A stretch of DNA of 24,896 bases from positions 1-24,896 of IMG/VR virus record IMGVR_UViG_3300005099_000002. One strand, given 5' to 3'. A model generated the notes under the pieces. It saw only the letters and a program-made list of their open reading frames with translations, was not told the DNA's origin and ran no database searches. Position numbers and translations under genes: made by a program. Of the stretch, positions 8,096 through 22,952 are shown in pieces (position 1 is the stretch's first letter; every line of letters begins with the position of its first letter). The stretch comes from a virus.

Positions 8096-8097
8096 AA

Positions 8098-8250
8098 ATG
8101 GCTTGGCCATACTTTTGTGCAAACCGGGAAAAACATCCAAACGGCGAGGTTATTCAGATAAAGACTAACAAAATTAATCCCCGTTGTCCTTACTGCGGTG
8201 AAATCATGACTTTTGGCTGGTATTACAGCCACACAAACTACGACTATTAG
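8098..8250 (+). CDS. Small Zn-ribbon-like protein (50 aa; not in ORF track)
   Basis: MAWPYFCANREKHPNGEVIQIKTNKINPRCPYCGEIMTFGWYYSHTNYDY; starts 2 nt after previous stop; followed by T-tract. Confidence 0.65.
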   Translation: MAWPYFCANREKHPNGEVIQIKTNKINPRCPYCGEIMTFGWYYSHTNYDY

Positions 8251-8280
8251 TTTTTATTTTTTAACTAACTTTTTATTTTA
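8251..8280 (+). terminator. Oligo-T archaeal terminator
   Basis: TTTTTATTTTTTAACTAACTTTTTATTTTA directly after stop. Confidence 0.5.
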
Positions 8281-8303
8281 TACGTGTTTTGTTTATCAAC
8301 ATA

Positions 8304-8344
8304 TTTATATAGGTTAAGTTATATATATAACATCGGGTGAGAAA
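8304..8344 (+). promoter_or_regulatory. Archaeal promoter with palindrome and GGTGA RBS
   Basis: TTTATATA 8304-8311, perfect palindrome GTTATATATATAAC 8318-8331, GGTGA 8336-8340, ATG 8345. Confidence 0.7.
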
Positions 8345-8707
8345 ATGATGAAAAAAATAAAAATGGAAGAAATAGTCAAGAAATGGGTTAAAAACTATTA
8401 TACAACCGAGAAAGAATTCTCATTGAAACATCCGAAGCTCTACAAGGCTAATTTAGAGTTTTTTGAGGCTGTCAATGATTTACTCAGTGAAATTGTGGAT
8501 TACGCTGTAAAATGGTTTTCACAGCATCCTAAGAGTGAGACCTTTGTGGTTTTTGATTATAATCAACTTTCCTGTTGGACACAAATAATTGTAAAGTTTA
8601 CGCGAAACGGCGAGGTTTTCATTTTCAAAGCTTACCGTTACTCAGACAACTATAAAGTCGGAGAACAAGCACTATACATAAAAGACCTACTTACAGAAAA
8701 AATTTAA
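8345..8707 (+). CDS. Hypothetical protein (antisense accessory gene)
   Basis: 120 aa ORF with promoter/RBS; stop overlaps the convergent gp10-like stop. Confidence 0.75.
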   Translation: MMKKIKMEEIVKKWVKNYYTTEKEFSLKHPKLYKANLEFFEAVNDLLSEIVDYAVKWFSQHPKSETFVVFDYNQLSCWTQIIVKFTRNGEVFIFKAYRYSDNYKVGEQALYIKDLLTEKI

Positions 8708-9153
8708 CCCCTCAATATTTCTTTTATTTTGTTTTTTATCAGTCTTTTTACCAGTTTTTTATTTTTCATAAAAGCGGGACGCATGAATGGTTGCGGTTCG
8801 GTTCCTTGTTTTGCGATTTTTTGGGCGATGGCCCACGCGGCTTCTTCCGGCATACCGTGCAGGTGGGCCCAGCGTTTAAGCGGTTCCACCGGTGGAAAAT
8901 GTGGCAACGTACCGTATTCGACGTAAGGAGCATAAAAAACATTTGTTCCGACTTCAACTTTGTTAAACGCTGTTTGCTCGATGTGTATGCTGGCTCTTAA
9001 ACGACCGGTGTTAACGGGGCAAAACTGTTTAGCGTCAAACTCAATTATGTAGCCGGCAGCCATGAGAACCCGGCTTATTTCACGTTGCAGTTTCTCGGGT
9101 AGCTTTTGCATATCCACTTTGCTTTTTATTTTAACTTTCATGTTCATAGACAT
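8704..9153 (-). CDS. HK97 gp10-family tail completion protein
   Basis: AKQFCPVNTGRLRASI...GTNVFYAPYVEYGT...QPFMRPAF signature. Confidence 0.9.
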   Translation of the reverse strand: MSMNMKVKIKSKVDMQKLPEKLQREISRVLMAAGYIIEFDAKQFCPVNTGRLRASIHIEQTAFNKVEVGTNVFYAPYVEYGTLPHFPPVEPLKRWAHLHGMPEEAAWAIAQKIAKQGTEPQPFMRPAFMKNKKLVKRLIKNKIKEILRG

Positions 9154-9163
9154 TTTATTTCAC

Positions 9164-9229
9164 TTTTACCGGCGGCTGGTAAAACACGTCACATGTGTGA
9201 CATGTCGTTCCGTCATGGGTGACGGAACG
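9164..9229. repeat. Three adjacent inverted repeats in an intergenic gap
   Basis: TTTTACC/GGTAAAA 9164-9184; CGTCACA-TG-TGTGACA 9187-9202; CGTTCCGTCA/TGACGGAACG 9206-9229. Confidence 0.85.
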
Positions 9230-9230
9230 G

Positions 9231-9584
9231 TTATTGTTCTAGTTCTGTTAAGCTGATTTTTTTAACGGTTAGGCCGGCGTAGGTTGTGGTTTCCACTCGG
9301 GTTACGATGTATTTGTTTCCGTTGTATTCTAGGCGGTCGCCTTCTTCTACGTTTACGTCGCTGCTAACGTAGGCTTCGAAGTCTACGCCGCCGTATTTCT
9401 CGCCTTCGCTTCGCAGCTCTAAGCTTTTAGCCGTCATAGGTGTGACAAGTATTTTAACGGTTTCCTCCGTCCACGTGGAAGAAGACTCATCGAGCTCGTC
9501 GTAGTCGTTGTACATCGGTGAGCTAAGTTTTTTCAGTGTTGCGTCCACTCCAAGTTTTTTAATGAAAATATTTAGGGATTTCAC
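9231..9584 (-). CDS. Head closure protein (SPP1 gp16-like)
   Basis: EGDRLEYNGNKYIV.RV motif; position after adaptor. Confidence 0.7.
   Translation of the reverse strand: MKSLNIFIKKLGVDATLKKLSSPMYNDYDELDESSSTWTEETVKILVTPMTAKSLELRSEGEKYGGVDFEAYVSSDVNVEEGDRLEYNGNKYIVTRVETTTYAGLTVKKISLTELEQ
9432..9447. repeat. Dispersed palindrome copy (2 mismatches)
   Basis: CGTCATA-GG-TGTGACA, inside head closure gene. Confidence 0.6.
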
Positions 9585-9599
9585 CGGACCACACCAAAA

Positions 9600-10190
9600 T
9601 TAGTAGTGTAGGTTTTTCTTGTATTTGTTTAGCCGGGTTTTCGCCCATTCCGGCAGTGTTTCCGGGGTTTCATAGCTTATGTTTACACCGTTTAAACTTA
9701 TAGACGAGGCTATTCCGGCTTCAGCGTGTTTAAGCGGATATTTTTTCAGCCACTCAACACAAAGCTGAATACAAATAGTTTTAATTTCCGTGGGAACCGT
9801 GCTGTAACCGTACGAGTAGGTTACTTTAACCGCTTTTACCTTCGCCTTCCAGTACCATTTGTTCGGGTCCACATAACCGTTTGAAACCTTTACTAGGCGG
9901 CCGTCACGAAACCAAACGTAATGGGTGTTCTCCGTTAAGGTTGTACCGTCTTCCACGACCTCTGAAACCGCCGTTACAGGGTAGTTTTTCAACATTATGA
10001 CGTTGTGGCCTTTTCCTTTCCCGTCGTAGTACTCTACGACGTTTTCATGTAACGTGAAGTCCCGGTTACAGTACGCGTCGATTAAAGCGGAAACATGGCT
10101 TATTATCAGCGACACCGATGGGTCCGGGTTTGAGTCAAACGTCGTGTCGAGGTATTTTTCGATGTCGTCTTGTGTACAGTAGTCTGTCAC
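9600..10190 (-). CDS. Head-tail adaptor (HK97 gp6/SPP1 gp15-like)
   Basis: YCTQDDIEKYL...IDAYCNRDF...VKVTYSYGYSTVPTEIK signature. Confidence 0.85.
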   Translation of the reverse strand: MTDYCTQDDIEKYLDTTFDSNPDPSVSLIISHVSALIDAYCNRDFTLHENVVEYYDGKGKGHNVIMLKNYPVTAVSEVVEDGTTLTENTHYVWFRDGRLVKVSNGYVDPNKWYWKAKVKAVKVTYSYGYSTVPTEIKTICIQLCVEWLKKYPLKHAEAGIASSISLNGVNISYETPETLPEWAKTRLNKYKKNLHY

Positions 10191-10231
10191 CGCCGCAGGC
10201 CTCCGTTTTAACTGTTAATTGTAAAAAAGGG

Positions 10232-10657
10232 TTAAGGTGTTTTGTGTTTTTTCATGTGCGAGTTCAACGCGTTCTGCGAGTCGAACTTTTTACCGCAAAC
10301 CGGGCAAACATATTCTTTTTCCGGTGGTTTCTCCAGTTCCTCTATAAATTCGTTTATTTCTTCTTCGTAGGGTACCTTTAACTGTTTTAAGAGTTCTTTT
10401 GCGGCTGCGAACGGCAGTTTTTTCAACGCCGCTAAAATTCTCGGCCCAAGCTTCTTTTTCAACTCCGGGCTAACAAGTTTCTCGATGTCTTGTTCCTCGG
10501 GGAAAACCTCTTCGTAACCCATGTTTCTTAGTAAGATGGCGTCTTCCTCGTTGTCCACGGTGCAGAGATGGTTTTGGAAATAGAAGGCTTTGTCCGGTGT
10601 AGGCCTAGCTATTTCGTTTTTCCCCTCAGACCTAAAAGTCCAAGTTTTCTTACCCAT
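10232..10657 (-). CDS. Head-module protein with C-terminal classical C2H2 zinc finger
   Basis: YVCPVCGKKFDSQNALNSHMKKH matches C-x2-C-x3-F-x5-L-x2-H-x3-H. Confidence 0.8.
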   Translation of the reverse strand: MGKKTWTFRSEGKNEIARPTPDKAFYFQNHLCTVDNEEDAILLRNMGYEEVFPEEQDIEKLVSPELKKKLGPRILAALKKLPFAAAKELLKQLKVPYEEEINEFIEELEKPPEKEYVCPVCGKKFDSQNALNSHMKKHKTP

Positions 10658-10672
10658 TTTCTAGCCTCCTAT

Positions 10673-10918
10673 TTATTTGTCGCCTATTACGATGCCGGCG
10701 ACCGTCCCCGTATTCGTACTTGTTAAAGTTATAACGTTGCCGCTTACCGAGTAGGTTTCCAGTGCATTGCTGCAAATCAATATGGCTACGTCGATGCTTG
10801 AAAGCTCACTCACAGTCAGCGTGTCGTTTTGATTGTTTTTTGTTCCCTTTACGAAAACGCAATACTTGCTTAAATGTGGTGAAATTACTACTTGGGTTTT
10901 ATTTGATACTTCAGCCAT
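10673..10918 (-). CDS. Putative capsid decoration protein
   Basis: 81 aa beta-rich, immediately after MCP; positional inference. Confidence 0.45.
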   Translation of the reverse strand: MAEVSNKTQVVISPHLSKYCVFVKGTKNNQNDTLTVSELSSIDVAILICSNALETYSVSGNVITLTSTNTGTVAGIVIGDK

Positions 10919-10934
10919 ATTTTACCACACTCCT

Positions 10935-11972
10935 TTATGGTAGGTTTATTATTTTAGCACAGAATTGTTCCGCTTTAACTATGCCAACCTCGTAGACTTT
11001 TAGCATAAACTTGTAGCTGTCGTTGGTTCTCGCCAGTTCCTCCATGACCACGTCTTGCAGCACTCTCATCTCTATTACGCTGGTATCTAAGACTAAGAAA
11101 ACCCGTTTCTGGGCGGTGTTAGGCATATTTCTGCAAGGCATGATTGGAATGCCGTCGAAGTTTATAGCCTTTATACCGTAGTTTAACGTCCCCGAAACGT
11201 CCATGTAGGTTATGTTTTGCTGCAGTAGCGATTTTATTTTGTTGAAGGTCCGCCAATCGGTTACCATAAGGTTGGGGTCTCCGCCGTGCTCAATACATTG
11301 TCTAATAGCGTCTCTTATGGCTGCGACGCTTATCTCAGTGGTGCCACCGTTATTCGTAATGTTGGTGGTTATTTGTTTTAGGATTCCGTCGTAGCCGTTA
11401 GCATTATAATCGTATATAGCTGTGTCGTCACCGGAGTTAGTTGTACCCCTCAATAAGGTTTTTTCTTCCTTTAACCGTAGGGCCTCGGTGTGAATTTTAA
11501 TTTCCTGTTGCAACGCGTTTATGTATTCTTTGCTTGCGGCTACTGCAGGCCCGGTAAGTCGGCCCACAGAGTACAGGAACTTGATGTTAGCGGTTTTCTG
11601 CTCGTAGGTTGTGTCTGATTCATCTAGGGCGGCGTCTTCCGCCAGCCACGTGGCCGATGGCTTAGCGGTTATACGGTTGTATACCGCGGCTTTCCCGCGG
11701 TTAGTCACTCTCCTAATAACATCTAGGAACGGTGTTTTCTGCTTGGTTAGGTCTATGATTTCGGGGTCCACGTAGACCGGCACAATTGTGCCCACCGTGC
11801 TCAAAGTATAGGCTTTTTCGATGTCTGGTTCAAGCATTTTTCTCAGTTCTGGCCTTCTGTCGATTCCTCTCCATGGGTCCCAGTAGACGGTGCCGTCGTA
11901 CAGGTCTTTGAAACAGATTCTATATGCGAGGTCGGACATAAAGTTTTCACTTATTCTTCCAAACACGGACAT
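10935..11972 (-). CDS. Major capsid protein (HK97 fold)
   Basis: IVPVYVDPEII...TPFL, WLAEDA, GYDGI, IRDAI...GGDP..MV motifs; 345 aa; follows protease. Confidence 0.9.
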   Translation of the reverse strand: MSVFGRISENFMSDLAYRICFKDLYDGTVYWDPWRGIDRRPELRKMLEPDIEKAYTLSTVGTIVPVYVDPEIIDLTKQKTPFLDVIRRVTNRGKAAVYNRITAKPSATWLAEDAALDESDTTYEQKTANIKFLYSVGRLTGPAVAASKEYINALQQEIKIHTEALRLKEEKTLLRGTTNSGDDTAIYDYNANGYDGILKQITTNITNNGGTTEISVAAIRDAIRQCIEHGGDPNLMVTDWRTFNKIKSLLQQNITYMDVSGTLNYGIKAINFDGIPIMPCRNMPNTAQKRVFLVLDTSVIEMRVLQDVVMEELARTNDSYKFMLKVYEVGIVKAEQFCAKIINLP

Positions 11973-13108
11973 TACTCATCAACTCCAAAACGTTTTTTAA
12001 GAGCCATCTTCAAAATGCTTTCTTCTTTAGGTGTTTTTTCTTCTTGTTCGGGTGCCGCGTTCTCTTTCACGGCTTTCCTAACCGGTAGCTCTTTCAGTTT
12101 TTCTTCGACGGTTTTTTCGATTAGCGACTTAATTGTCACAGGTGTGACGTCCGCCTGTGCTTGGGCGGCCTCAGCTTGCTGTTCCTGTTTTTCCTGCCAC
12201 AGGTCTCTCAAAACTTCTTCTATTTTTGCTAGGCGTTCCTCTATTGTTTTTATTCTTTCCTCCAAATTTGACTCCTCCGTTTCGGATTCTTCTCCTCCTT
12301 CTTGTTGTTCTTGTTGTTGAGAGGTCTCTTCGACCTCTTTAAACAAAATAAAGTCGACAAGTTCTTTTTCGACGTCGGGGTCAACCGCCTTTATTTTACC
12401 GGCCCGCCTACCAATATAGGCACACAATCGCTGGGCGTTTTCTTTTTTAAGACCCCGACATCTCATAAAGTACTCTACGCACCCGTCGAACCCGTTTTTA
12501 AAGGTTCCATCCGGGTTAACGTAACGGTCACGGCAACTACTACCTGCTTTCACGGTTTCTTGAGACGTTTCCTTCACCACCTCGGGTTTTTCAATTGAAT
12601 CTAAACTTTTACTAAGCACTTCGATAAGGGTCTCCGGGTTCGCCGGAACATCCACCAAACTTACCTCGTATAGCTCCATTTTCGTTATTCTGCGGACCGG
12701 GCGGCCCAACGTCTTATCATAGTAGCGTTCGGCCTCTAATATTCGGCCGCCAATACTGTACGCTTTAAGTATGCCTTCTTTGACTAGTTGCCACGCTTCA
12801 TCAGCCGCCTTAATCCCCTTCAAAATCTTAGCTTTAAGTCTTAGGCCTTTGTGGTCGATTTTAAGGTCCAACGCCTTACCAATAGGCTGCTTCTGATGCA
12901 TGTAGCGTATCGTAGGGAACATCATGTATTTTTGGGCGGCCTCCTTCAACGCCTCACGTGTGACAATCTCATATTCCCGGTCCACCGTCTCCGTACTAGC
13001 ATAACCCTCAATTATTCTTTGTTCGTCGTCGAGAATTTTCTGGTCGGTCGCCGTCATAACCGCTTGAAACGGCACACTCATCTTAATTATTTCACGTTCA
13101 CCGCTCAC
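11972..13108 (-). CDS. HK97-type prohead protease with C-terminal scaffold-like region
   Basis: IEGYAS...DREYE, MHQKQPIGK, AYSIGG, LYEVSLVDVPANP; acidic linker and coiled-coil tail. Confidence 0.92.
   Translation of the reverse strand: MSGEREIIKMSVPFQAVMTATDQKILDDEQRIIEGYASTETVDREYEIVTREALKEAAQKYMMFPTIRYMHQKQPIGKALDLKIDHKGLRLKAKILKGIKAADEAWQLVKEGILKAYSIGGRILEAERYYDKTLGRPVRRITKMELYEVSLVDVPANPETLIEVLSKSLDSIEKPEVVKETSQETVKAGSSCRDRYVNPDGTFKNGFDGCVEYFMRCRGLKKENAQRLCAYIGRRAGKIKAVDPDVEKELVDFILFKEVEETSQQQEQQEGGEESETEESNLEERIKTIEERLAKIEEVLRDLWQEKQEQQAEAAQAQADVTPVTIKSLIEKTVEEKLKELPVRKAVKENAAPEQEEKTPKEESILKMALKKRFGVDE
12134..12149. repeat. Dispersed palindrome copy (1 mismatch)
   Basis: TGTCACA-GG-TGTGACG, in protease/scaffold linker. 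Confidence 0.85.
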
Positions 13109-13332
13109 TTCAGAAACCTCGCTGAAATAAATCTAACAAAATAAGCCGCAGCAATATATAATAAAATGCCGTAATAAACCCCGCAGCAAAAACTATAACA
13201 TCTACAAAAACCAAGTTTAAAAGAAATTAAAAAACAAACACCAACCTAAAAAATTAAACAAAATAAAGGGGTTGGGGGTTGTCGGGTCTGGTGTGTCCGG
13301 GGTTGGGTTGTTTTATTTAAGGGTTTTTGTTG

Positions 13333-13347
13333 TTACTATTGTAGTAA
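13333..13347. promoter_or_regulatory. Third copy of the TTACTA-N3-TAGTAA operator
   Basis: TTACTA-TTG-TAGTAA, 3 nt beyond the hjc stop. Confidence 0.6.
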
Positions 13348-13350
13348 AAG

Positions 13351-13719
13351 TTAGATGGGGTATATTTGTATGTATTTTGTTTGTTTTTCTTTTATTGCTA
13401 GGATTAGTTTTGCGTTTAGGGTTTTTGCTATTTGTATTTGTCGTTTCATTTGGGTTTTTGGGTAGTAGTTGTTTGTTTTACATTCGATTAATATTATTTC
13501 TTTTGTGTTTGGTTCTATTGCTATGAGGTCAATAGGTTTACTTCCTGCAAGTCTAAAAACTATATAGCCTTTATTTTCAAATCGCCGTTTGACCTTATAT
13601 TCAAATTTTCTAGCATAAATCATTCTTGCTTTCTGAATCTTCCTGTTTTTCTCTTTTTCCAAAAGCTCGAAAAAACGTTTTTTCTGCAATATATTTAATT
13701 TGTTTTCCATTTTTATCAC
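13351..13719 (-). CDS. hjc: Archaeal Holliday junction resolvase-like PD-(D/E)xK nuclease (ATG at 13710 likely start)
   Basis: FEYKVKRRFENKGYIVFRLAGSKPIDLIAI...IILIECKT matches the Hjc motif. Confidence 0.8.
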   Translation of the reverse strand: MIKMENKLNILQKKRFFELLEKEKNRKIQKARMIYARKFEYKVKRRFENKGYIVFRLAGSKPIDLIAIEPNTKEIILIECKTNNYYPKTQMKRQIQIAKTLNAKLILAIKEKQTKYIQIYPI

Positions 13720-13725
13720 TTACAT

Positions 13726-13881
13726 CTAAATGGGTGATATTATTCGGGTGAAGCCGCAGTTTGGGCATTTGTATTCTCTTGCTGGGATTAGTTCTGCTGA
13801 GGCTGCGTCGAAAAAATAGCATATTTTTGTTTTTAGTTTGTGGTTGCAGAGCGGGCAGACGTTAACTTTTAGAACATTCAT
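13726..13881 (-). CDS. Zn-ribbon protein (51 aa; not in ORF track)
   Basis: MNVLKVNVCPLCNHKLKTKICYFFDAASAELIPAREYKCPNCGFTRIISPI. Confidence 0.7.
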   Translation of the reverse strand: MNVLKVNVCPLCNHKLKTKICYFFDAASAELIPAREYKCPNCGFTRIISPI

Positions 13882-14011
13882 TTAAGTGGGCCTCTTTTAG
13901 TTTTTTATGGGTTTCACGGTTGTCTGCGATTAGTATGGTGCCGCAGTAAGGGCACACCCAAATATAGGCTTCTCTATCCCTAAGCAGCGTGTTAAGTTCT
14001 TTTAGACCCAT
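13862..14011 (-). CDS. Zn-finger-like protein (49 aa; not in ORF track)
   Basis: MGLKELNTLLRDREAYIWVCPYCGTILIADNRETHKKLKEAHLNECSKS; overlaps portal stop and next start. Confidence 0.65.
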   Translation of the reverse strand: MGLKELNTLLRDREAYIWVCPYCGTILIADNRETHKKLKEAHLNECSKS

Positions 14012-16433
14012 TTTTGCCACCATTTTTTATTATTCCGAAGAGTTTAAGCCAACTGTAAACGGCAAAATGAGTTACACCGAGTTCGTCGGCAATTTTACGC
14101 GTACTTAAACCGCTACTATATTTTTCCCGCAAATAATCATATATATTAATGTTGTATTTTTGTTCGAGTTCAATCATGGTCTTTGTTTTTTTGATGTAGC
14201 GGCCGTCTTCGGTTAGAATCGCGTTTTTACTTATTATTGGTACGATTGTGCAGCGGCAGTTTGGATGTAAGGGTGGTACGTCTATTTGGCCGAAACGCGG
14301 CGAAATAAACTTAGCTAGCAGCGGTACTTTTTGGTTGGCCATTTCAAGGCAGTCGGGACACGTACGGTCATCGTAGGTTACAATCCACTGTTTGCCTTCG
14401 ACCACGTCTGATTTTTGGTAGCCGATTAAACGGCCCATATTCGACGCTCTTATTGTCTCGGTGCGTGCGATTCTCTCGGCTTCCCAGTCCGTTAACGTGC
14501 TAAACTCCTCTTTTATCAGCTCGCCCATTTTATCTATTGATAGGCCGGTTTGCAGGCCTTCGATTAAAACGTTTCTTATACGGTCTCTTACTTGTTCATA
14601 TTTGGATGTGGCTAAGAGCTGCGTATAGGTTTCAATGTAATGTACGGCTAACGGGTCCTCCAAGTCGAAGGTGGCCTCTAAGTTGAGTTCTTGGGCGGCT
14701 TTACGGAAACCTAGCAAAATGGCGTTTAACATGTATTTTTTAAGGAACTCTTTGAACTCTTGGGCGTGGCCGCTTAAAACCTTTTCAATAAGGTCCCGGA
14801 AAACTTTAACATCCTTTTCCAGTAGGGGTTTACCGTTAAGCTGTTTCATGGCTTCCGCGAATTTCTCGCTTTTAAGGAAATTTATGAGTTCGTTTACATG
14901 TTTTTTAAAAAGTTTTTGTAGGTCTTCGGTGAACTTTTTTTCGAAGGTTTTTAGGCCCCATATTTCCCGTGGGTCCCGTGGGTCGCTGCTTGGGTTGGGG
15001 AGTTTGTAGAATTCGTCGCGGTGTGTCACATGTGTGACATTGGTCTCGGTGTTCTCGCTCGGTATAATGGGATTATCGGTTGTTAGGGCTTTTTTATTTG
15101 CGAGTGTTATTGGCGGTATTGATGGTTGTGTTCCGGTTACGGATTCGAACGGGTAGTTTTGCGGCATAAAAAGGGGTCTGTTTCCCCATGGAACCGGGTC
15201 TAACCCCATTTCTCGGCGGACTTCGTTTATTGTTTTAAGGCCGGTTCTTATTTCACGTTCCCATATTGCTATTTGCCGTTCTTTTTCGAAACGGTCGCGG
15301 TGCGGTGCAAACTTAAACATAACGTCGTCGAAACCGAACTCCGGAATAATCTCCGTGTTAATGTGATATTCTAAAAGTCTCAGTAAGGGTCCTAGTCCTT
15401 TACGTCGGAAAACTTCGCTTTGCTCCTCGCTTGTGGCCCGGTTAACTGTCTCCGTTAATCCCAGCTCGTTCGGTGTAACTTTGAACGCGGCCATTACGAG
15501 CTTGAAATACCATCTTTGACTTTCTAAGAACTGCATTTCTTTATTTGTAAGCGTAAACTGCTGCCATTTAAAATCACGGTTAATGATAGGTAGTTTGTGG
15601 GGTTTTCCTTTTACTTCGGTTTCCCACCATCTAATAAAGTTCTCAAACTCTGTTTCACTTATGTCCAATAAAGATAGTACGCCGCTGGGTATGCTTTCGC
15701 TGAAATATTTCTCGTTCCACTCTAAGCTTTTAATTAAGGTTTTTACGACGGTTAAAATGGATTGTACAGGTGAGAAACCGTAACAAGAATAAGAACGCGG
15801 ATTTTGCATAATATAGACGATTTCTTTTTCCGTGAAAAATATCGGTTTTGATTGCGGGTTTTTAAAACTATACTGATAGTAGCCCTGTACCACGCCGTGT
15901 TCATCAACCTTTTTAAGAAATGTGGCTCCGTCTGCGGCGTAAATTTCACGTAGTTGGCTTTTTTCGTCGAAAACCTTAACGATAACACCGGCATCTATCT
16001 CCAAGATGTCTCTTACGACTTGCCGTAATATTTGTTCGAAGCTTTCATCGTTAATGTTGGGGTTTTCGAAAAACCGTTTAACTATACGGCAGTGTTCTAA
16101 AACGATGGGGTTGTTGACGTGTTTCGGGTCCTTTGGAACAATGTCCCATTCTACGCTGCAAACCTCGTCGATAAGAGTGTCGATACATATTCGGCACCAC
16201 GCGGTTTGAGCCATTTCCCGTATTTCGTAGATGTTTACTTTCCGCGGGACACCGTAAGGTGCACGCCAAAACCAGTGGGGCGTAACGGTTTTACGGTAAC
16301 TTCTTTTTTCTTTTACACCTTGATAAACCGTTATATTTTGATAGGCGGCGTCGACTACGCCCTTCTCCACCGTATCATAGGTTAATGTAGGGTTTTGTTT
16401 CGACCGTTTAAAAAACTTGAATATACGCGACAT
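13992..16433 (-). CDS. Portal protein fused to MuF (SPP1 gp7-like) domain and C-terminal HTH
   Basis: HK97-type portal motifs (YGFSP, EMQFLE, FKVTPNELG); MuF motifs (AERIARTET, DDRTCPDC, PPLHPNCRC); HTH GLSTRKIADELGVTHFAVYSWLK. Confidence 0.92.
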   Translation of the reverse strand: MSRIFKFFKRSKQNPTLTYDTVEKGVVDAAYQNITVYQGVKEKRSYRKTVTPHWFWRAPYGVPRKVNIYEIREMAQTAWCRICIDTLIDEVCSVEWDIVPKDPKHVNNPIVLEHCRIVKRFFENPNINDESFEQILRQVVRDILEIDAGVIVKVFDEKSQLREIYAADGATFLKKVDEHGVVQGYYQYSFKNPQSKPIFFTEKEIVYIMQNPRSYSCYGFSPVQSILTVVKTLIKSLEWNEKYFSESIPSGVLSLLDISETEFENFIRWWETEVKGKPHKLPIINRDFKWQQFTLTNKEMQFLESQRWYFKLVMAAFKVTPNELGLTETVNRATSEEQSEVFRRKGLGPLLRLLEYHINTEIIPEFGFDDVMFKFAPHRDRFEKERQIAIWEREIRTGLKTINEVRREMGLDPVPWGNRPLFMPQNYPFESVTGTQPSIPPITLANKKALTTDNPIIPSENTETNVTHVTHRDEFYKLPNPSSDPRDPREIWGLKTFEKKFTEDLQKLFKKHVNELINFLKSEKFAEAMKQLNGKPLLEKDVKVFRDLIEKVLSGHAQEFKEFLKKYMLNAILLGFRKAAQELNLEATFDLEDPLAVHYIETYTQLLATSKYEQVRDRIRNVLIEGLQTGLSIDKMGELIKEEFSTLTDWEAERIARTETIRASNMGRLIGYQKSDVVEGKQWIVTYDDRTCPDCLEMANQKVPLLAKFISPRFGQIDVPPLHPNCRCTIVPIISKNAILTEDGRYIKKTKTMIELEQKYNINIYDYLREKYSSGLSTRKIADELGVTHFAVYSWLKLFGIIKNGGKNGSKRT
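15024..15039. repeat. Dispersed palindrome copy (perfect)
   Basis: TGTCACA-TG-TGTGACA, in portal-MuF linker. Confidence 0.9.
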
Positions 16434-16455
16434 ATTATTTTATTCCGCATTATTT

Positions 16456-16464
16456 TTTATAAAA
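16456..16464 (-). promoter_or_regulatory. TATA box for a probably leaderless portal transcript
   Basis: TTTTATAAA 23-31 nt upstream of portal ATG; no RBS. Confidence 0.45.
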
Positions 16465-16731
16465 TTATTGTGTCACGTTTAAATCTACAAGTTTATGTCC
16501 ACACTTAGGGCATTTACCGCCGCTACAAATTAAATCTATTAAACTTGTTTTCACGCCGCAAGCACATTTAAAATAGATGTGGCCGCTTAGTTCTGTTTTT
16601 ATTTTTTGTAAAACATTAAAGTCTAATAGGTTCGTGTTAAGCTCAGTTGTGCCGGTTCCAGTCACCGGACGAGGGATAGCAGAGGGTGGATAGTTAAAAC
16701 GGTGCTTCCAGCTTGGCACAACCATCATCAT
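16465..16731 (-). CDS. Zn-ribbon protein
   Basis: FKCACG...CSGGKCPKCGH. Confidence 0.6.
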   Translation of the reverse strand: MMMVVPSWKHRFNYPPSAIPRPVTGTGTTELNTNLLDFNVLQKIKTELSGHIYFKCACGVKTSLIDLICSGGKCPKCGHKLVDLNVTQ

Positions 16732-16845
16732 CGCCTATATTTTAAATCCAATTTACAATTATAATAATAATTATAATGATTATTATTGTTGCGAGCCCTG
16801 TAAATAGAATCGCGTTTCTATATGCTTGTTCCACCTTTTTCATTT

Positions 16846-17103
16846 CTATGCCTCCACGTTTACACCTAAAACGGCTAACGCGTTTTTCACAATTTCAGCT
16901 CGTTCAGTGTCGCCTTCCTCTAGGAACCGTTTATAGAGTTTTTTACAGTAGTCTTGTAGGTGTTTTGGCATGGTTGATTGTTTGCCTTCTAATAGTGATT
17001 TCACTATTTCGCCGAGGGTTTTACGTTGGCCCTTTTTCTTGAGTTGAAGTTGTAGTTCTAAAAGTTTGACATGGGTATATTCGTCTACTTTTATAGTCGG
17101 CAA
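16846..17103 (-). CDS. Ribbon-helix-helix DNA-binding protein
   Basis: TIKVDEYTHVKLLEL...RKTLGEIVKSLL fits the archaeal RHH/VapB-like pattern; TTG start with GGTG RBS. Confidence 0.7.
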   Translation of the reverse strand: MPTIKVDEYTHVKLLELQLQLKKKGQRKTLGEIVKSLLEGKQSTMPKHLQDYCKKLYKRFLEEGDTERAEIVKNALAVLGVNVEA

Positions 17104-17121
17104 CTTTTACACCTTTATATT

Positions 17122-17153
17122 TTTATAAAAGTATACCGGTATACTTTTATAAA
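17122..17153. repeat. 32-bp perfect palindrome
   Basis: TTTATAAAAGTATACCGGTATACTTTTATAAA is its own reverse complement. Confidence 0.95.
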
Positions 17154-17180
17154 TTTGTATTTTTATATTTTTCTAACCGG

Positions 17181-17537
17181 CTACTTGTCTACTTGTTCAA
17201 AAAATTCTTTGGTCGGTGTAGTGTATTTTGCTTTCAGCCGTTTAACCGTGAAATAACAGTTTTTAGGCCGTTTACTGCCGTAAGGACAACGATGAGGTAT
17301 TGGGTTTGTGCCGCCGGTCCAATACGGATTTTCATCCCAATGGTTACGCCAATCACAAACATAGTAGAATTCGAGCTGGTCTATCCACACTATTTGATGG
17401 GCCTTACGCTTTTTTCCTTCCAGTTCACATAGCTCGCAGTTCTTATGTGGAAGCTGGTCGTAAGCGTACTGTTTCCAAGCCTCCCAGCAACTCAAACAAA
17501 CATCTTCTTTTTTACTCGTATTTCCACGGCTCGTCAT
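17181..17537 (-). CDS. Cys-rich hypothetical protein
   Basis: CLSC, CELC, CDW..H, HRC..C motifs. Confidence 0.65.
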   Translation of the reverse strand: MTSRGNTSKKEDVCLSCWEAWKQYAYDQLPHKNCELCELEGKKRKAHQIVWIDQLEFYYVCDWRNHWDENPYWTGGTNPIPHRCPYGSKRPKNCYFTVKRLKAKYTTPTKEFFEQVDK

Positions 17538-17745
17538 ATTTTTTCAACTCGTAAATGTTTTTCTCTAAGGTTAAAATTATTTCAGCTAATGTTTTTTCTT
17601 TATCTAAAAAATGGAACAAACGGTATTTACCATCTTCACAACTTACCCATGAAAGTTGTTTACGGTCGAGGTTTAAAACTTTAGCTGTTGTTTTTAGCCA
17701 CGCATCTAACCGTTTTCTTATTTGTTTTGAAAGTATTTTAGACAC
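17512..17745 (-). CDS. Hypothetical protein
   Basis: 77 aa, overlapping both neighbours. Confidence 0.6.
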   Translation of the reverse strand: MSKILSKQIRKRLDAWLKTTAKVLNLDRKQLSWVSCEDGKYRLFHFLDKEKTLAEIILTLEKNIYELKKYDEPWKYE

Positions 17746-18118
17746 GCTCCTCGATTACTTCGAGTTTTCCGCCGCAGTACCGGCACCGCCATAACAGTTG
17801 TTGTGCGATGTTTTCCGGGTAGGTTACCCTGCACTTGGGGCAGCGGCCCCACCGGATAACCCGGGTTCCTTCAAGCCGTTTTTTCAGTTTTTTGTGTTCC
17901 GGAGTCATCATCGTGGGGATAAATACTGGCAGCGGTATTTGCGGGTTTCCGGGCCAGTGACGTTCAAGATACTCTTTGAACGCTCTTAATGCGAGTTCGC
18001 TGAAGCTTATTTGTTCCCGTTTAGCCAGTTTACGCATTTTCTCATATACGTCTCGTTCTTCTTCTATTACTTGCAGTAAAATTTGCTTAGGAACGCCTTT
18101 TTTTAAAGGTCTAGGCAT
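17738..18118 (-). CDS. RHH plus Zn-ribbon transcription regulator
   Basis: YEKMRKLAKREQISFSELALRAFKEYL (RHH helices) plus CPKC...CRYCG; GGGTGA RBS. Confidence 0.75.
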   Translation of the reverse strand: MPRPLKKGVPKQILLQVIEEERDVYEKMRKLAKREQISFSELALRAFKEYLERHWPGNPQIPLPVFIPTMMTPEHKKLKKRLEGTRVIRWGRCPKCRVTYPENIAQQLLWRCRYCGGKLEVIEERV

Positions 18119-18282
18119 TTTTCACCCTCCGAAAGTCTTTTTTCAAGAAAATAAATATAGGTTGGGCATAGCCGCCAGTACTCGTCTATTAAGGTTTCAT
18201 CGGGATACAAAATGAAGTCGCAGTACTGGCCGCTAAGCTTACATTTTTTTGTGTCGGTTAAATAGGGACATTTTTTAGACAT
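18103..18282 (-). CDS. Cys-rich small protein (59 aa; not in ORF track)
   Basis: MSKKCPYLTDTKKCKLSGQYCDFILYPDETLIDEYWRLCPTYIYFLEKRLSEGEKCLDL; GGTGGGG upstream; overlaps next gene. Confidence 0.6.
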   Translation of the reverse strand: MSKKCPYLTDTKKCKLSGQYCDFILYPDETLIDEYWRLCPTYIYFLEKRLSEGEKCLDL

Positions 18283-18288
18283 TTGTAA

Positions 18289-18545
18289 ACCCCACCTTTG
18301 TTTCCAGTGGAACTTAACTTGGGCCTGTTTGCTAAGTTAAGTTATTAATATATATTAATAGTTAATATATATTAATGTTGAGTTTAGTTTATGGGTTTTT
18401 CCAGTGGATGCAGTGGAAATAAAGGGGTTATAACAGTGTTTCAGTTTTCCGACGTTAAAAAGAAAATAAAAAACCGGGTTAAGTTAAGGGTTTTCGACCT
18501 TTACTTCGTTAGGAAGTTCGCAAGACCTATACTTCCACTGGAAAA
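18289..18545. other. Putative replication origin: ORB elements flanking an AT-rich unwinding element
   Basis: Minus-strand GTTCCACTGGAAACAAAGGTGGGGT (18289-18313); plus-strand TGCAGTGGAAATAAAGGGGT (18409-18428); cores TTCCAGTGGAT (18399-18409) and TTCCACTGGAA (18533-18543); AT core 18334-18392. Confidence 0.75.
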
Positions 18546-18561
18546 TGTCACACGTGTGACA
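18546..18561. repeat. Dispersed palindrome copy (perfect, fully symmetric)
   Basis: TGTCACACGTGTGACA, next to an ORB core at the origin edge. Confidence 0.9.
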
Positions 18562-18828
18562 TCACAGAAAGTGGTGCAACTTACTAACCTTAGACAACTG
18601 AAACCACGCCAACACATCTTCAACACTATTTGTTAAGAGCCGTCTAATGGCTTCGAAAAGATATTTTGCTCCTTTTGCCGGCGGCGGATAAAGCTTTTGT
18701 TCATTTTCAAAAAAGAATTTGATTAAGGTGAAAAGTTCACGGTAAGTTATTTGTTCCCAGCCGTCCGTCTTAACCAAAACAATCTTATCGTTAACGGTTT
18801 TATTTCCCGGTTTAAACTTAAACTCCAT
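18562..18828 (-). CDS. Hypothetical protein
   Basis: 88 aa ORF with GGTGA RBS. Confidence 0.7.
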   Translation of the reverse strand: MEFKFKPGNKTVNDKIVLVKTDGWEQITYRELFTLIKFFFENEQKLYPPPAKGAKYLFEAIRRLLTNSVEDVLAWFQLSKVSKLHHFL

Positions 18829-18831
18829 TAT

Positions 18832-19149
18832 TTATTCACCTTTATAGTGCGATAAATCTACCCATGGCTGAACATAGCCACAATAAGGGCAAACCGCTAA
18901 GTCTGCGGGAATAGCAGCTTCGCATTTCGGGCAAAATTTAAACTCTTTTTTCTTTGTTTTTTCCACGTGACATACCGTGTCGTCCAACCGTCTAAGACTG
19001 TACAAATATAAGATAAACGCTAATAGCCACGTTAATTCAATGAAAGGAGTATTTACATCAAGTATGTCGCTGGGGTCCGGTATAATCGCCAATAAAAAAA
19101 TAAGAAAAATAATGAAAAACTCATGTTTTCTTAGTCTTATTTTAATCAC
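18832..19149 (-). CDS. Membrane protein with C-terminal double Zn ribbon
   Basis: Two hydrophobic segments around IPDPSDILD; FCPKC...VCPYCG. Confidence 0.75.
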   Translation of the reverse strand: MIKIRLRKHEFFIIFLIFLLAIIPDPSDILDVNTPFIELTWLLAFILYLYSLRRLDDTVCHVEKTKKKEFKFCPKCEAAIPADLAVCPYCGYVQPWVDLSHYKGE

Positions 19150-20086
19150 CCAGCTCGTTTATTGGAATTATGTATTGGCCGTTTTCACCAACAACCATTA
19201 AAAAGATTACTTGATTGTTTGTTTCCGCTATTTTCTTTAACGCTTCCACTAAGATATATAGTTGGGCGACTTCACTCGCGTTCATGCCGCATTTTTCTGC
19301 TATAAGAGCAATAGCCTCGGCGGTTGCGTTTGCTTGTATAAGTGTGGCGTTTGCATTTGCCTGAGCGGTTATTATAACTGTGTTGGCTCGGTACATTGCC
19401 GCTATCATTTCTTGTTCCGCTGCTAACTTATCTTCAATTGCATCAATAAATTTTTGCGGCAGAGCTATCTCGCGTAAGTCTAGTTCTTCTAAGATAACCG
19501 CGTTTAACAGTGTTCTGTCGGCTGTTAACCGGTTTTCAAACTCGTTATAAAGTATGGTTCCTATTTCAGCACGTTTCTCAATCGTTTCAATAGCTGAATA
19601 ATTAGCAATAACATCTCTTACCGTTTCACGTAGAATGCTGGCTATTGTTGTCATTTTCCAATTTAACATGGGATAGTTTTTGTATAGTTCAAGTACTTTA
19701 TTCGGGTCTAGTCGCCATCGCGCCATAATGTCGACTTCCACGCTTAAACCGTCACGTGTTAAACATGGTATCGCCGGGTAGTCGCCGGTTGCGTTTCTCT
19801 CGGACCACATTTCTAAACTGTCTACTGCTACATACACATATTTTACACTGGCCCAAGGTGCTTTTTTGAAAAACAAATAAGCAGCGTAGGTTCCGTCACC
19901 AACCGCCCACATTTCTTGGCTAATCGGGTCAATAATAATAGCCGTATAACCAACCTTAACATGCACGGTTGTGCACACTATAAGTATCGGTGTCCCTATA
20001 AGTACAAAAAGTACCAGTACTGCAACCGTGCTTTTCAAAACGTTTTTTATTTTGGAACGCTTAAATATTCGTTTTTCATTCCACAT
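19142..20086 (-). CDS. SPFH/prohibitin (band 7) membrane protein
   Basis: N-terminal TM, TRDGLSVEVDIMARWRL, RETVRDVIANY, LREIALPQKFIDAIEDKLAAEQE, Ala-rich coiled coil. Confidence 0.92.
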   Translation of the reverse strand: MWNEKRIFKRSKIKNVLKSTVAVLVLFVLIGTPILIVCTTVHVKVGYTAIIIDPISQEMWAVGDGTYAAYLFFKKAPWASVKYVYVAVDSLEMWSERNATGDYPAIPCLTRDGLSVEVDIMARWRLDPNKVLELYKNYPMLNWKMTTIASILRETVRDVIANYSAIETIEKRAEIGTILYNEFENRLTADRTLLNAVILEELDLREIALPQKFIDAIEDKLAAEQEMIAAMYRANTVIITAQANANATLIQANATAEAIALIAEKCGMNASEVAQLYILVEALKKIAETNNQVIFLMVVGENGQYIIPINELGD

Positions 20087-20093
20087 TTATTTT

Positions 20094-20558
20094 TCACCTC
20101 CCTTTAGGTTTATAATAGGGGCAGAAGTTTGGTTTTTCGGGTGCGTGGCCTTTACGGAGACAGTCTTCCAGCCACTCGCACCCGTGGCATATAAGTTTTT
20201 CACGGGGCTTTACGGACGTGTAATATTCGCCCCGCGTTATTTTTCTAACACGGTACAGGTAGCGGGCGGAAAAACTGCCGTAATATTTTTTCACTTCGTC
20301 GACCCATTCACGTACGGTTTTAAACCCGGAGTTTTCCACGTAGCTTTCCAGTTCTTCGGGTGATTCGATTTTCTTCACGAATTTAATGTAAACGTAACAT
20401 AGAAACTCTACGTATCGCCGTTTAAAGCTTCCTTTAACAGCTTTTGCTTTTCCTTCCCGCCTCGGGTAACGTAACGTGTAAACAAAACCGTGTTTAAGCA
20501 GGTGTTCCCGCGGACCCTTACTGTTAAAAAATATAACTCCGTTTTTCGGCCGCTTCAC
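20094..20558 (-). CDS. ASCH/PUA-like domain protein with Cys-rich tail
   Basis: VYTLR...LESYVENSGFKTVREW pattern resembles ASCH; C-terminal CxxC..C..C. Confidence 0.5.
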   Translation of the reverse strand: MKRPKNGVIFFNSKGPREHLLKHGFVYTLRYPRREGKAKAVKGSFKRRYVEFLCYVYIKFVKKIESPEELESYVENSGFKTVREWVDEVKKYYGSFSARYLYRVRKITRGEYYTSVKPREKLICHGCEWLEDCLRKGHAPEKPNFCPYYKPKGR

Positions 20559-20962
20559 CTGCTCTCACCTCTACTTTTTTCGCGGACCCACATTCGACGA
20601 GCTGAAACCCATTTAAACCCGATTTTCCTAAGTTTTTCGTTTATGTTGTTCCATGCGTCGCGGCCCAGCCAGCCGCTCGGTATAATTATGTCTTTGTTTT
20701 CCGTAGACGTGAAGGAAACTTTACGTCGCTCTTCCGCTGAAAGAACGCTCTTAGGACACACGGTTAGAGTGGGTTGTTCTACTGGTTTTTCCGGCGGCCC
20801 GAAAAGACTAAGCTTTAAAATCATTTTCATGGTTGCAAGCACAGCTATACGGTGCTCCCTCTTGTCTTCTTCTTTGAGGTTAGGGAACCATTTATCTACG
20901 AGTTCAACCGCCAAACTATGGATGGCTTCCATTTTTTCTTTTTCGTTTATTTTTCCCACCAC
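20555..20962 (-). CDS. Hypothetical protein
   Basis: 135 aa, coupled overlaps, C-terminal WNNINEKLRKIGFKW...W motif. Confidence 0.7.
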   Translation of the reverse strand: MVGKINEKEKMEAIHSLAVELVDKWFPNLKEEDKREHRIAVLATMKMILKLSLFGPPEKPVEQPTLTVCPKSVLSAEERRKVSFTSTENKDIIIPSGWLGRDAWNNINEKLRKIGFKWVSARRMWVREKSRGESR

Positions 20963-21615
20963 GCTTTTCGAAGTGTTTTAACATTAACATTCGTGAATTT
21001 TTTAAGCTCGGAAATTAGCCACTTGGTTTTTTCCAGCTCGGGTTCCGGTAGCTTATGGTTGTAGTTGTCGTAGCCCACGTAGACCGTTCGCGGATTTATT
21101 TTTTCTAGGAAGTTAACGAACACGTTGTTGAAATCTAAAATCGGCTCTATTGCTATGAACTTATCATCCCACGGCAGTTTTTTCATTGCCAATAGACGTT
21201 CCATTGGGTGCGGTGCGTCGCTTACATCCCAGTCTCGGTCGCTTTCAATAGTGGCCCCTAAAATAACGTTCGACGGGAAAAGTTCGAGAAAATCAAAATA
21301 TCTTAAAGGGTTTTTTGTTAAAAGAAGAAACCGGCTGTCCGGGTTTTTTTCAATGGTATGTAAAACCTGTACAATCCACGTGTCCGGAACCTCGTAACAA
21401 AACAAGTCACCCATGTCGACCACAAAAACTATTTTATTTTTAAACCGACGGTTCAAACGCTCAGGATGTAAATGTGGAACAAACCTGTAACATTTTTTGC
21501 AGCGGTTTTTTTGACGCCTAGCTAAACGGCGAGCCCAACAGTAACAACAATTATGTGTGCAGCCGACCACAGGGTTCCATGTAACTTTAACCATGCTAAA
21601 CATGCGGCTTGTCAA
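20947..21615 (-). CDS. DUF5131 (phage Gp37/Gp68) radical-SAM-like protein
   Basis: TWNPVVGCTHNCCYCWA (CxxxCxxC), VFVVDMGDLF, LLTKNP, IEPIL signatures. Confidence 0.9.
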   Translation of the reverse strand: MTSRMFSMVKVTWNPVVGCTHNCCYCWARRLARRQKNRCKKCYRFVPHLHPERLNRRFKNKIVFVVDMGDLFCYEVPDTWIVQVLHTIEKNPDSRFLLLTKNPLRYFDFLELFPSNVILGATIESDRDWDVSDAPHPMERLLAMKKLPWDDKFIAIEPILDFNNVFVNFLEKINPRTVYVGYDNYNHKLPEPELEKTKWLISELKKFTNVNVKTLRKAWWEK

Positions 21616-21961
21616 TTCTCACACCTCGAGCATACATGTAAATGTCTTCAAAGTTTTTGAAAAGCATTAGAAAACCGCCGTAAGGCACAATACGCGGATA
21701 AATACATCTAACATATAGATGTTTACCGCGTCTAAGGTAGCCGTTGAAGTGAGGGCAGCCTTGGCAGTGTTTTAGCACGTTGACCGTGCTGTCGGATTTA
21801 AAACATGTCTCACGTGTGACTTCCACGAACGCCACGCGACTAGCAACATTAAACTTAACCCTTCTAATGTGTTCGTTTTCCATTTTGGGCGGCTGGATGA
21901 GTGAGGGAGGGGAGTATGAACGGAAACAAAAAAAAGTTGAACACAACAGGTTTACATCCAA
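21596..21961 (-). CDS. Hypothetical Cys-containing protein (true start may be ATG 21883)
   Basis: CQGCPHF...VRC motif; T8 tract in the 5' extension suggests the shorter start. Confidence 0.55.
   Translation of the reverse strand: MDVNLLCSTFFCFRSYSPPSLIQPPKMENEHIRRVKFNVASRVAFVEVTRETCFKSDSTVNVLKHCQGCPHFNGYLRRGKHLYVRCIYPRIVPYGGFLMLFKNFEDIYMYARGVRIDKPHV
21806..21821. repeat. Dispersed palindrome copy (2 mismatches)
   Basis: TGTCTCA-CG-TGTGACT, inside a hypothetical gene. Confidence 0.65.
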
Positions 21962-22385: not shown

Positions 22386-22952
22386 TTAAAGCACCTCGCT
22401 TTTTCTAATTTTTTCTATTTCTTCTTTACTCGGCTTTTTATTCAATAAACAGCGATAAACTTTGATTTTGTCGTAGGGATATTTTGGGTTAATTGGTTTT
22501 CTTTCTACTTCTTCTATCCAGCCCTGTTGTTCAAAGCGTTTAACAAGTATGCCTAAGTCTCGTAGCAAATGGTCGTAAGCGTATTTATCTAAGCCGGTGG
22601 CTTCACGTAAATCCCTTATCGTAAAAGTGTCACCGTAATTTAAACTGGCAATATAATTAGCAATGATATTTAACAGGTCTTCACGGGTCCCTTTAAAAAC
22701 CGGCTTAACTGGTTTACTCGGTTTATATGGTTCGATTGGCATGGGTTCCGGTGGTCTTACCGGCGGTTCCTCCGGTAAAGTTTGAATACCTAAAAGTTTA
22801 CCCGGGTTTTCTTTTCTCCTTGGTTTTTCACGTTTAACCGGCAACGGTTTAAGCGGAACACCTACCAAAAAAGTTTTACCGCAAAACGGACAAGTAACTT
22901 TGAAAGCGTTTTCAATAGGTTCCAGCTCTTCAAACATCGGTACTTCACCCAC
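22386..22952 (-). CDS. Zn ribbon, Pro-rich linker and winged-helix DNA-binding protein
   Basis: CPFCG; PEEPPVRPPEPMP; FTIRDLREATGL...LVKRFEQQGWIEEV...KVYR wHTH pattern. Confidence 0.7.
   Translation of the reverse strand: MGEVPMFEELEPIENAFKVTCPFCGKTFLVGVPLKPLPVKREKPRRKENPGKLLGIQTLPEEPPVRPPEPMPIEPYKPSKPVKPVFKGTREDLLNIIANYIASLNYGDTFTIRDLREATGLDKYAYDHLLRDLGILVKRFEQQGWIEEVERKPINPKYPYDKIKVYRCLLNKKPSKEEIEKIRKSEVL

Follow-up and report, generated by a model that had tools for sequence, protein, structure and literature searches.

Origin recognition boxes in a non-coding gap of an archaeal head-tail virus

IMG/VR record IMGVR_UViG_3300005099_000002 was analyzed over its entire length of 24,896 nt (hereafter the window), estimated to be 70% complete. 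Between two co-oriented minus-strand open reading frames (ORFs), 18562-18828 and 18103-18282, lies a 279-bp gap (18283-18561) with sequences resembling the origin recognition boxes (ORBs) that Orc1/Cdc6 binds at archaeal replication origins; this gap is the subject of the present report. The initial annotation had described two boxes on opposite strands pointing away from each other across an AT-rich core, with two more dyad cores nearby, and we found all of them in the gap (Table 1).

The portion 18411-18430 of ORB2 is CAGTGGAAATAAAGGGGT, with TG immediately before it. From CAGTGG to GGGGT, ORB2 is identical to the cellular consensus described below at 18/18 positions, with ATG in place of the dyad's left arm. 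Together, the bare core and ORB2 make up a doubled unit, CAGTGGATGCAGTGGAAAT. The core inside ORB3 is TTCCACTGGAA, at 18533. The AT-rich core contains a 33-nt near-palindrome composed entirely of A and T (18344-18376) and two 17-nt direct repeats, and it probably also bears TATA-like promoter elements of the downstream operon. We did not accept a plus-strand ORF in the gap, 18391-18636, as a gene, since it overlaps with the 88-aa ORF and related viruses lack a homologue. A scan of 17900-18900 with Rfam gave nothing near its thresholds.

Table 1. Features in and around the gap (window coordinates)
Feature	Position	Strand	Description
ORB1	18289-18313	-	GTTCCACTGGAAACAAAGGTGGGGT; full origin recognition box; G-string directed away from the AT-rich core; 2 mismatches, 26.6 bits
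AT-rich core, candidate duplex unwinding element	18333-18392		Highest AT content of the window at 30, 40 and 60 nt
Bare dyad core, mini-ORB-like	18399-18409	+	TTCCAGTGGAT; 9 nt before ORB2
ORB2	18406-18430	+	GGATGCAGTGGAAATAAAGGGGTTA; G-string directed away from the AT-rich core; 2 mismatches, 28.0 bits, best of the genome
ORB3	18521-18545	-	TTCCAGTGGAAGTATAGGTCT; degenerate full box, 17/21, 4 mismatches, 12.1 bits; convergent with ORB2, 94 nt away
Dispersed palindrome, sole perfect copy	18546-18561		TGTCACACGTGTGACA; abuts ORB3; candidate site for a virus-encoded DNA-binding protein
88-aa ORF	18562-18828	-	Upstream of the gap; its stop codon is the gap boundary; no family match
59-aa Cys-rich ORF	18103-18282	-	First gene downstream of the gap; putative ribosome-binding site within ORB1; no family match
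126-aa protein, ribbon-helix-helix (RHH) with C-terminal Zn ribbon	17738-18118	-	Invariant HYPGNPQIP motif; candidate regulator/copy-control protein

By its genes, the virus is of the head-tail type. The window encodes a portal-MuF fusion (13992-16433), a prohead protease, an HK97/SU10-type capsid protein and a tail tube protein, in addition to an SPFH protein, a DUF5131 protein, a ThiF-like protein and an archaeal-type Hjc resolvase (13351-13719). A near-identical complete genome, IMGVR_UViG_3300014887_000001 (G001; length 35,901 nt, terminal repeat 123 nt, rated 100% complete), includes the portion absent from the window, with genes for the large terminase, fibre-like proteins and a VWA protein and a tRNA-Ile with the anticodon TAT (G001 18,883-18,959; L008 983-1059). 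The genome is small and transcribed nearly unidirectionally. The gap is present within the viral genome in both of these independent assemblies, with a 1-base difference outside all boxes. A chimeric assembly with host DNA was excluded, because the two assemblies are concordant and viral genes are found on both flanks. Among INPHARED phages, there was no BLAST match to window positions 17000-20000.

The boxes fit the consensus of cellular origins

We re-derived the cellular consensus by scanning one genome per prokaryotic species with the pattern TTCCASTGGAAAYAAA-N0-3-GGGG. At least 120 genome contigs were matched; among the matches listed, 117 were archaeal, from many phyla, and 3 were bacterial. 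The matched sites have (G)TTCCAGTGGAAAYAAAGGGGT in common. An Orc1/Cdc6 ORF was located within the 8-kb locus in 46 of the 120 matches listed, at a distance of no more than 500 nt from the box in 35, and one locus ORF checked in Pfam contained Cdc6_C, Cdc6_lid and AAA. The orc1/cdc6 ORFs near the boxes indicate that the pattern marks genuine orc1-adjacent origins. From the 117 archaeal loci we obtained a 21-nt pan-archaeal ORB consensus, TTCCASTGGAAAYAAAGGGGT, and 229 archaeal sites were used to construct an ungapped position weight matrix (PWM).

The dyad core TTCCASTGGAA, with 1 mismatch at most, occurs 3 times in the window, always in the gap, compared to a mean of 0.29 in shuffled sequences. 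Three sites in the gap deviate from the 21-nt consensus, by 2, 2 and 4 mismatches, and there is no other site with 5 mismatches or fewer in the 24.9 kb; sixty shuffled 8-kb archaeal loci contained zero such sites. Scored with the PWM, ORB2, ORB1 and ORB3 reached 28.0, 26.6 and 12.1 bits, whereas the rest of the window did not exceed 8 bits and 40 shuffled versions of it produced a single match, of 8.1 bits. The cellular sites themselves showed a median of 36.7 bits and a minimum of 8.2 bits. Clearly, the boxes of the gap fit the cellular consensus in mismatch count as well as in PWM score, and the pattern is far beyond chance. When 2.9 million IMG/VR contigs were scanned with TTCCASTGGAAAYAAA-N0-3-GGGG, this virus alone was matched; the pattern is therefore not a common viral sequence.

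The arrangement of the boxes resembles that of chromosomal origins

In the cellular loci among the matches listed, neighboring ORBs of opposite orientation were divergent in 41 cases and convergent in 8, with spacers mostly of 112-254 nt that hold a strongly AT-rich stretch. ORB1 and ORB2 are divergent, with their G-strings outward, and are separated by a 95-nt spacer with a maximum AT fraction of 0.95, in which the AT maximum of the window is located for 30-, 40- and 60-nt stretches. The inverted, outward-facing boxes around an AT-rich element therefore agree with cellular origins in both orientation and spacer. Archaeal chromosomal oriC regions (Pyrococcus oriC, Sulfolobus oriC1 and haloarchaeal oriC1) show the same consensus of dyad core, A-tract and G-string; as in the viral gap, two strong outward boxes are placed around an AT-rich unwinding element, and there are 1-5 boxes per origin, in front of a gene (definition in PMC5333045).

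No Orc1/Cdc6 or other replication protein is recognized in the virus

A local hidden Markov model (HMM) of 46 cellular Orc1/Cdc6 proteins was run against all ORFs of at least 40 aa; as a positive control, 47 cellular Orc1 proteins were recovered. No Orc1/Cdc6 was detected in the window, in the whole of G001 or in the loci L134-L136 of related viruses (best E 0.25). One of these relatives, G409, is 90% complete, and the search covered 22.3 kb of it (L135). Profiles of MCM, PolB, PrimPol and tyrosine integrase found no match in G001 or G409. When the remaining ORFs were scanned with Pfam, PHROGs and NCBIfam, no replication family came up; a Rep, helicase or primase gene, as expected for an iteron-type origin, was likewise not seen in the replicon. 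The lack of orc1/cdc6, initially annotated for the surroundings of the gap, thus holds across the complete genome, where mcm was not found either. An initiator of unrecognized type may be present among the many unannotated small viral proteins.

A putative origin read by the host initiator

Because the virus has no recognized replication genes but carries a copy of the origin layout, it probably borrows the Orc1/Cdc6 of its host. On balance, the sequence leads us to favor the gap as a compact origin that would depend on host Orc1/Cdc6 and overlap the promoter of the RHH/Zn-ribbon operon. Host Orc1/Cdc6 would bind to ORB1 and ORB2 and, less strongly, to ORB3 and the bare core. As the two strong boxes face outward, the initiators would bracket the 95-nt spacer; host MCM would then be loaded at the all-AT palindrome of this spacer, and the circularized 35.8-kb genome would be copied bidirectionally by the host replisome. 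The same DNA would serve as promoter and 5' leader of the operon starting at 18282, which encodes the 59-aa Cys-rich protein and then the RHH/Zn-ribbon protein. With the DNA shared in this way, initiator occupancy and transcription of the operon would probably be coupled, as at cellular origins in front of orc1/cdc6, and the RHH protein may act as a regulator of copy number or timing. Binding of Orc1/Cdc6, loading of MCM, firing of the origin and coupling to transcription are steps that we infer from the layout. As for the initial reading of the gap as an origin of host type, the cellular match, the layout and the missing initiator supported it in part, whereas its value as a marker of the host did not hold (see below).

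Several points weigh against a host-dependent origin. ORB2 is doubled and has no left dyad arm; ORB1 has 3 extra nucleotides between the A-tract and the G-string (AAAGGGGT changed to AAAGGTGGGGT); and the 95-nt spacer is shorter than that of the shortest cellular divergent pair sampled (112 nt). Unlike chromosomal oriC, the gap has no orc1/cdc6 beside it or anywhere in the replicon, a viral genome of 36 kb, and what follows it is a gene for an RHH protein instead of an initiator. Haloarchaeal origins, according to PMC3936714, specifically depend on the adjacent orc gene, so that an orphan origin would have to fit the host's own initiator. Cumulative skew over the complete genome, proposed initially as a check, gave a divided answer: the minimum of the amino/keto (MK) disparity of G001, at 27,871, falls inside the ORB cluster, as one of several extremes tested, whereas the extremes of GC skew and purine/pyrimidine (RY) disparity are located outside. 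The gap is also the promoter region ahead of the RHH/Zn-ribbon gene, and the presence in it of the only perfect copy of the palindrome TGTCACACGTGTGACA is compatible with a purely regulatory role. Finally, the corresponding elements of related viruses (G409, L189 and L191-L193; next section) do not reach 8 bits when scored with the ungapped PWM. Canonical boxes are thus restricted to the species of the window (window and G001): either this species acquired them recently, or its relatives rely on sites that have diverged or are different.

ORB-like elements in related viruses

Genus-level relatives were reached via portal homologues. In L135, the locus of G409, portal and capsid proteins are 60% and 86% identical to those of the window, and the RHH homologue is found directly behind the syntenic gap. 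Within this gap, upstream of an AT-rich stretch, there is one ORB-like element; it is oriented antisense to the gene, and its ORB strand reads GGTTCCACAGGAAATGAGGTTTAC. The element of L189 has one further mismatch in the core. In a third clade, L191-L193, with an RHH protein 40% identical, GCAGTGGATGCAGTGGAAATAGAGGTC has the position and orientation of ORB2 and is 19/19 identical to the doubled unit of the window. Counting L135/L188/L189 and L191-L193, an ORB-like element precedes the RHH gene at the position and in the orientation of ORB2 in two more clades, and that it was kept in the same place in three clades speaks for a function. The beta-strand residues of the RHH protein vary between clades (KQILLQV, TTSILLY and VKIVSVP). 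That this DNA-reading strand varies while the 19-mer is identical favors a conserved host protein as the reader. The RHH homologues L183-L186, L190 and L194 have no such repeats upstream.

The doubling of ORB2 was also considered as a recent replication slip, and was ruled out because the doubled 19-mer is kept in L191-L193.

With canonical boxes in the window's species only and degenerate ones in genus-level relatives, the gap could be a non-functional remnant of a host origin, recently gained by illegitimate recombination; the idea that origins are captured between chromosomes and extrachromosomal elements is accepted (reviewed in PMC5333045). Such a remnant is, however, very improbable. A BLAST search of the gap against the 117 archaeal origin loci returned matches of box length only, with no flanking host sequence. 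In addition, a viral gene evidently has its ribosome-binding site in an adapted ORB1 (see below), ORB-like elements share position and orientation in three viral clades, and the single base at which the two assemblies differ in the gap is outside the boxes.

A (CTAC)n microsatellite separates the ORB-like element from the AT-rich promoter of the RHH gene in L191 (approximately 1830-1860) and, at the equivalent place, in L192 and L193. Its copy number is higher in L193 than in L191 and L192. It is possibly a device for spacing or phase variation.

The gap as leader and promoter of the RHH operon

The insertion in ORB1 yields a Shine-Dalgarno-like AGGTG at 9-10 nt ahead of the ATG at 18282, and similar sequences, AGGTGA and GGAGGGTGA, precede neighboring genes. 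On these grounds, the idea that the G-string of ORB1 doubles as the ribosome-binding site of ORF 18103-18282 is reasonable. Judging from these sequences, ORB1 evidently is shaped to serve additionally as a ribosome-binding site.

The RHH/Zn-ribbon protein, whose RHH-like sequence and gene position are clear, gave a single family match, a sub-threshold one in NCBIfam to the plasmid copy-control protein ORF56 (E 0.004; 17 bits versus a cut-off of 50). In Pfam, there is no family for the RHH proteins with HYPGNPQIP (window and L183-L196). The dispersed palindrome is present in 10 copies with up to 3 mismatches at window positions 2557-21821, versus 0.06 expected, mostly in coding sequence. In the complete genome, 12 copies are present if up to 2 mismatches are allowed; no copies were found in the relatives G409, L134, L136 and L191.

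These properties have to be weighed against the host-dependent origin. The overlap with a promoter, the palindrome and the resemblance to ORF56 make a serious rival of the view that the gap is a regulatory region only, in which the CAGTGGA repeats are operators of a virus-encoded protein and the likeness to ORBs is convergent or vestigial. The operators would be read by the adjacent RHH/Zn-ribbon protein or by the 188-aa protein encoded at 22386-22952, controlling a promoter in the AT-rich core. The gap is directly upstream of the operon encoding the RHH protein, which weakly matches a plasmid copy-control repressor; the unit found across clades is a 9-nt-spaced direct repeat, CAGTGGA-TG-CAGTGGA, that could be read by tandem-binding RHH proteins; the elements of relatives fail the ORB PWM; and the sole perfect copy of the palindrome abuts ORB3. 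Against operators alone speak the matches, which continue for 10-11 nt past the core into the consensus A-tract and G-string, the two strong boxes positioned as in cellular origins, and the pattern unique among 2.9 million viral contigs. Moreover, the beta-strand of the RHH protein differs between clades in spite of the identical 19-mer, and several RHH homologues have no repeats upstream. We consider a purely regulatory gap unlikely.

A protein bound to ORB1, which is situated between the TATA-like AT-rich core and the start codon, would block transcription or modulate it. The boxes might bind host Orc1/Cdc6 without constituting a viral origin, either as a sink drawing the initiator off the host chromosome or as a switch tying the operon to the cell cycle or initiator state of the host. 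Orc1 paralogues regulate transcription in archaea and archaeal viruses (SNJ2, Orc1-2), and Haloarcula does not tolerate an extra oriC2 on a plasmid, a sign that the initiator can be limiting (PMC5333045). Outward boxes around an AT maximum are, however, unnecessary for a sink or a switch, and the virus would still need to recruit a replisome, for which no alternative was found; this explanation is improbable.

Two observations on proteins of the virus are added here. In the RHH family (window 17738-18118; L183-L196), HYPGNPQIP directly follows the second helix, and some members extend the motif as Q-x-x-L/I-x-x-F/Y-x (QIPLPVFI, QIPITGFM), resembling a PCNA-interacting (PIP) box. The 188-aa protein (22386-22952) has a Zn ribbon at its N-terminus, followed by a Pro-rich linker and, at the C-terminus, a winged-helix-like domain (weak match to AbiEi_4, E 0.0016), and is a candidate DNA-binding regulator of the early region.

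The boxes do not identify the host

If the gap is a host-dependent origin, its boxes might be expected to reveal the host, as the initial annotation had suggested. This was not supported: the same 21-mer was found in Methanomicrobiales, Methanotrichales, Methanosarcinales, Nitrososphaeraceae, Asgard, Thermoplasmatota, Woesearchaeota and Hadarchaeales. Since the consensus is pan-archaeal, the viral ORBs are uninformative on the host. Searches with the major capsid protein gave distant matches only in 401 Halobacteriota genomes (26-27% identity) and none in five named archaeal genomes. The viral tRNA-Ile(TAT), compared with 301 Halobacteriota genomes, showed generic similarity of no more than 85%. 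The left flank of ORB2 was also tried as an ORB variant, ATGCAGTGGAAAY..GGGG; with 1 match in 301 Thermoproteota genomes, which is the chance level, it was rejected.

Metagenome-assembled genomes of Methanotrichaceae/Methanothrix and Methanosarcinales (L047, L052, L053, L054, L074, L076, L080, L083 and L093) have a single conserved box with the same flank, TTATTTTTCCACTGGAAATAAAGGGGT. No Orc1/Cdc6 ORF was found in the 8-kb loci around these boxes, which may represent an orc1-distant origin or a stand-alone Orc1 site.

A second virus with ORB-like boxes and comparison with known systems

A short BLAST search with ORB2 against INPHARED led to NMP1 (BK067782; Marefusivirus pacificense, Nipumfusiviridae), a virus with spindle-shaped particles. 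It has an array of boxes in an intergenic region of 690 nt (BK067782.1, approximately 32,490-33,185; L199 2371-3064), on either side of which the gene blocks are transcribed divergently. Four are on one strand, three of them being GACTGGAGTGGAAATGGGGGT, AACTGGAGTGGAAACAAGGGGGG and TCTGGACTGGAAATATAGGTGG and the fourth weaker; one, GACTGGACTGGAAATAAAGGGGGT, is on the other strand. The G-strings are directed outwards around an AT-rich stretch. The HMM detected no Orc1/Cdc6 in NMP1. The non-palindromic form CTGGASTGGAAAY..GGGG is the chromosomal ORB variant of the class Nitrososphaeria, found in 88 of 251 genomes (one of the 88, G543, being unpublished) versus 1/251 for the reversed control, and orc1/cdc6 was 250-350 nt away in 6/6 sampled loci (E <=1e-128). 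The paper describing Nipumfusiviridae makes no mention of ORBs, of Orc1 or of the box array as an origin.

NMP1 thus resembles the virus of the window in being Orc1-less and in having outward ORB-like boxes around an AT-rich region, and its boxes are of the ORB type carried by chromosomes of its putative host class. The two viruses differ in that NMP1 is unrelated, spindle-shaped and associated with Nitrosopumilaceae, and has the non-palindromic core CTGGASTGGAAAY, more boxes, a spacer of about 400 nt and a location between divergent gene blocks. A second, unrelated Orc1-less virus that mirrors the ORB variant of its putative host lineage strengthens the host-initiator reading in general. We tentatively suggest, as a generalization that is rather less probable than the origin proposed for the window, that archaeal viruses without replication proteins commonly carry a mimic of the ORB-unwinding element-ORB arrangement of their host lineage and are licensed directly by host Orc1/Cdc6. 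If so, an ORB variant in a virus would act as its origin and at the same time mark the host lineage, and this tailed virus and NMP1 would be the first two examples, unrelated and each with the ORB type of a different archaeal group. If lineage-specific ORBs are mirrored in viruses, as NMP1 and Nitrososphaeria suggest, they would provide a new handle for host prediction and small portable origins for vectors in archaea without genetic tools.

Orc1/Cdc6-type recognition is known in other archaeal mobile elements, namely haloarchaeal pleolipoviruses (SNJ2), Tebi-SV1 and Methanobrevibacter MSTV1. These elements encode their own Orc1/Cdc6, whereas this virus encodes none and has boxes of the cellular consensus; the Orc1/Cdc6 proteins of SNJ2 and MSTV1 are thought to regulate lysogeny. 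ORB-like sites have been predicted in the pleolipovirus HHPV4 by Ori-Finder 2 (PMC5867852). A preprint on Thermococcales viruses reports no classical ORBs and no Orc1/Cdc6 in its data set (PMC12934983), and in a preprint on AGV1 ORBs were not found (bioRxiv 10.1101/2021.04.21.440749). In the literature searched, no virus is described with cellular-type ORBs but without an initiator.

By what means most archaeal viruses initiate replication is not known, and many small and mid-sized ones encode no recognizable replication protein. A cellular-type origin without an initiator offers a concrete, testable mechanism, in which host Orc1/Cdc6 would read viral DNA, load MCM and impose host licensing. 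It would be an archaeal counterpart of the viral episomes of eukaryotes that depend on the host origin recognition complex (ORC), and it bears on the idea that extra chromosomal origins of archaea derived from captured mobile elements. In herpesvirus latency, the episome is licensed at Epstein-Barr virus (EBV) oriP or the terminal repeats of KSHV (Kaposi's sarcoma-associated herpesvirus) by host ORC/Cdc6 and MCM, with no viral helicase or polymerase. These latent origins recruit ORC via a viral tether (EBNA1 or LANA), whereas in the virus studied here the DNA itself is proposed to mimic the initiator site; no homology is implied. In bacteria, the P1 plasmid origin and pSC101 carry host DnaA boxes beside an AT-rich region on a mobile element. 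They differ in the initiator family and in having their own Rep with iterons, whereas no Rep is recognizable in this virus.

The exact 19-mer of ORB1 was encountered in three other IMG/VR contigs. In two, it is a coincidence within coding sequence (E-V-P-L-E-T-K). The third, IMGVR_UViG_3300035698_015476 (L009), is a tailed-virus fragment with TerL at 5266-6570 and no Orc1. Its non-coding stretch 3228-4214, about 1 kb long, contains an ORB-like site, AGTTCCACTGGAAACAAAGGTTACT (18.8 bits), at 3918; a weaker one, of 11.3 bits, is at 5266.

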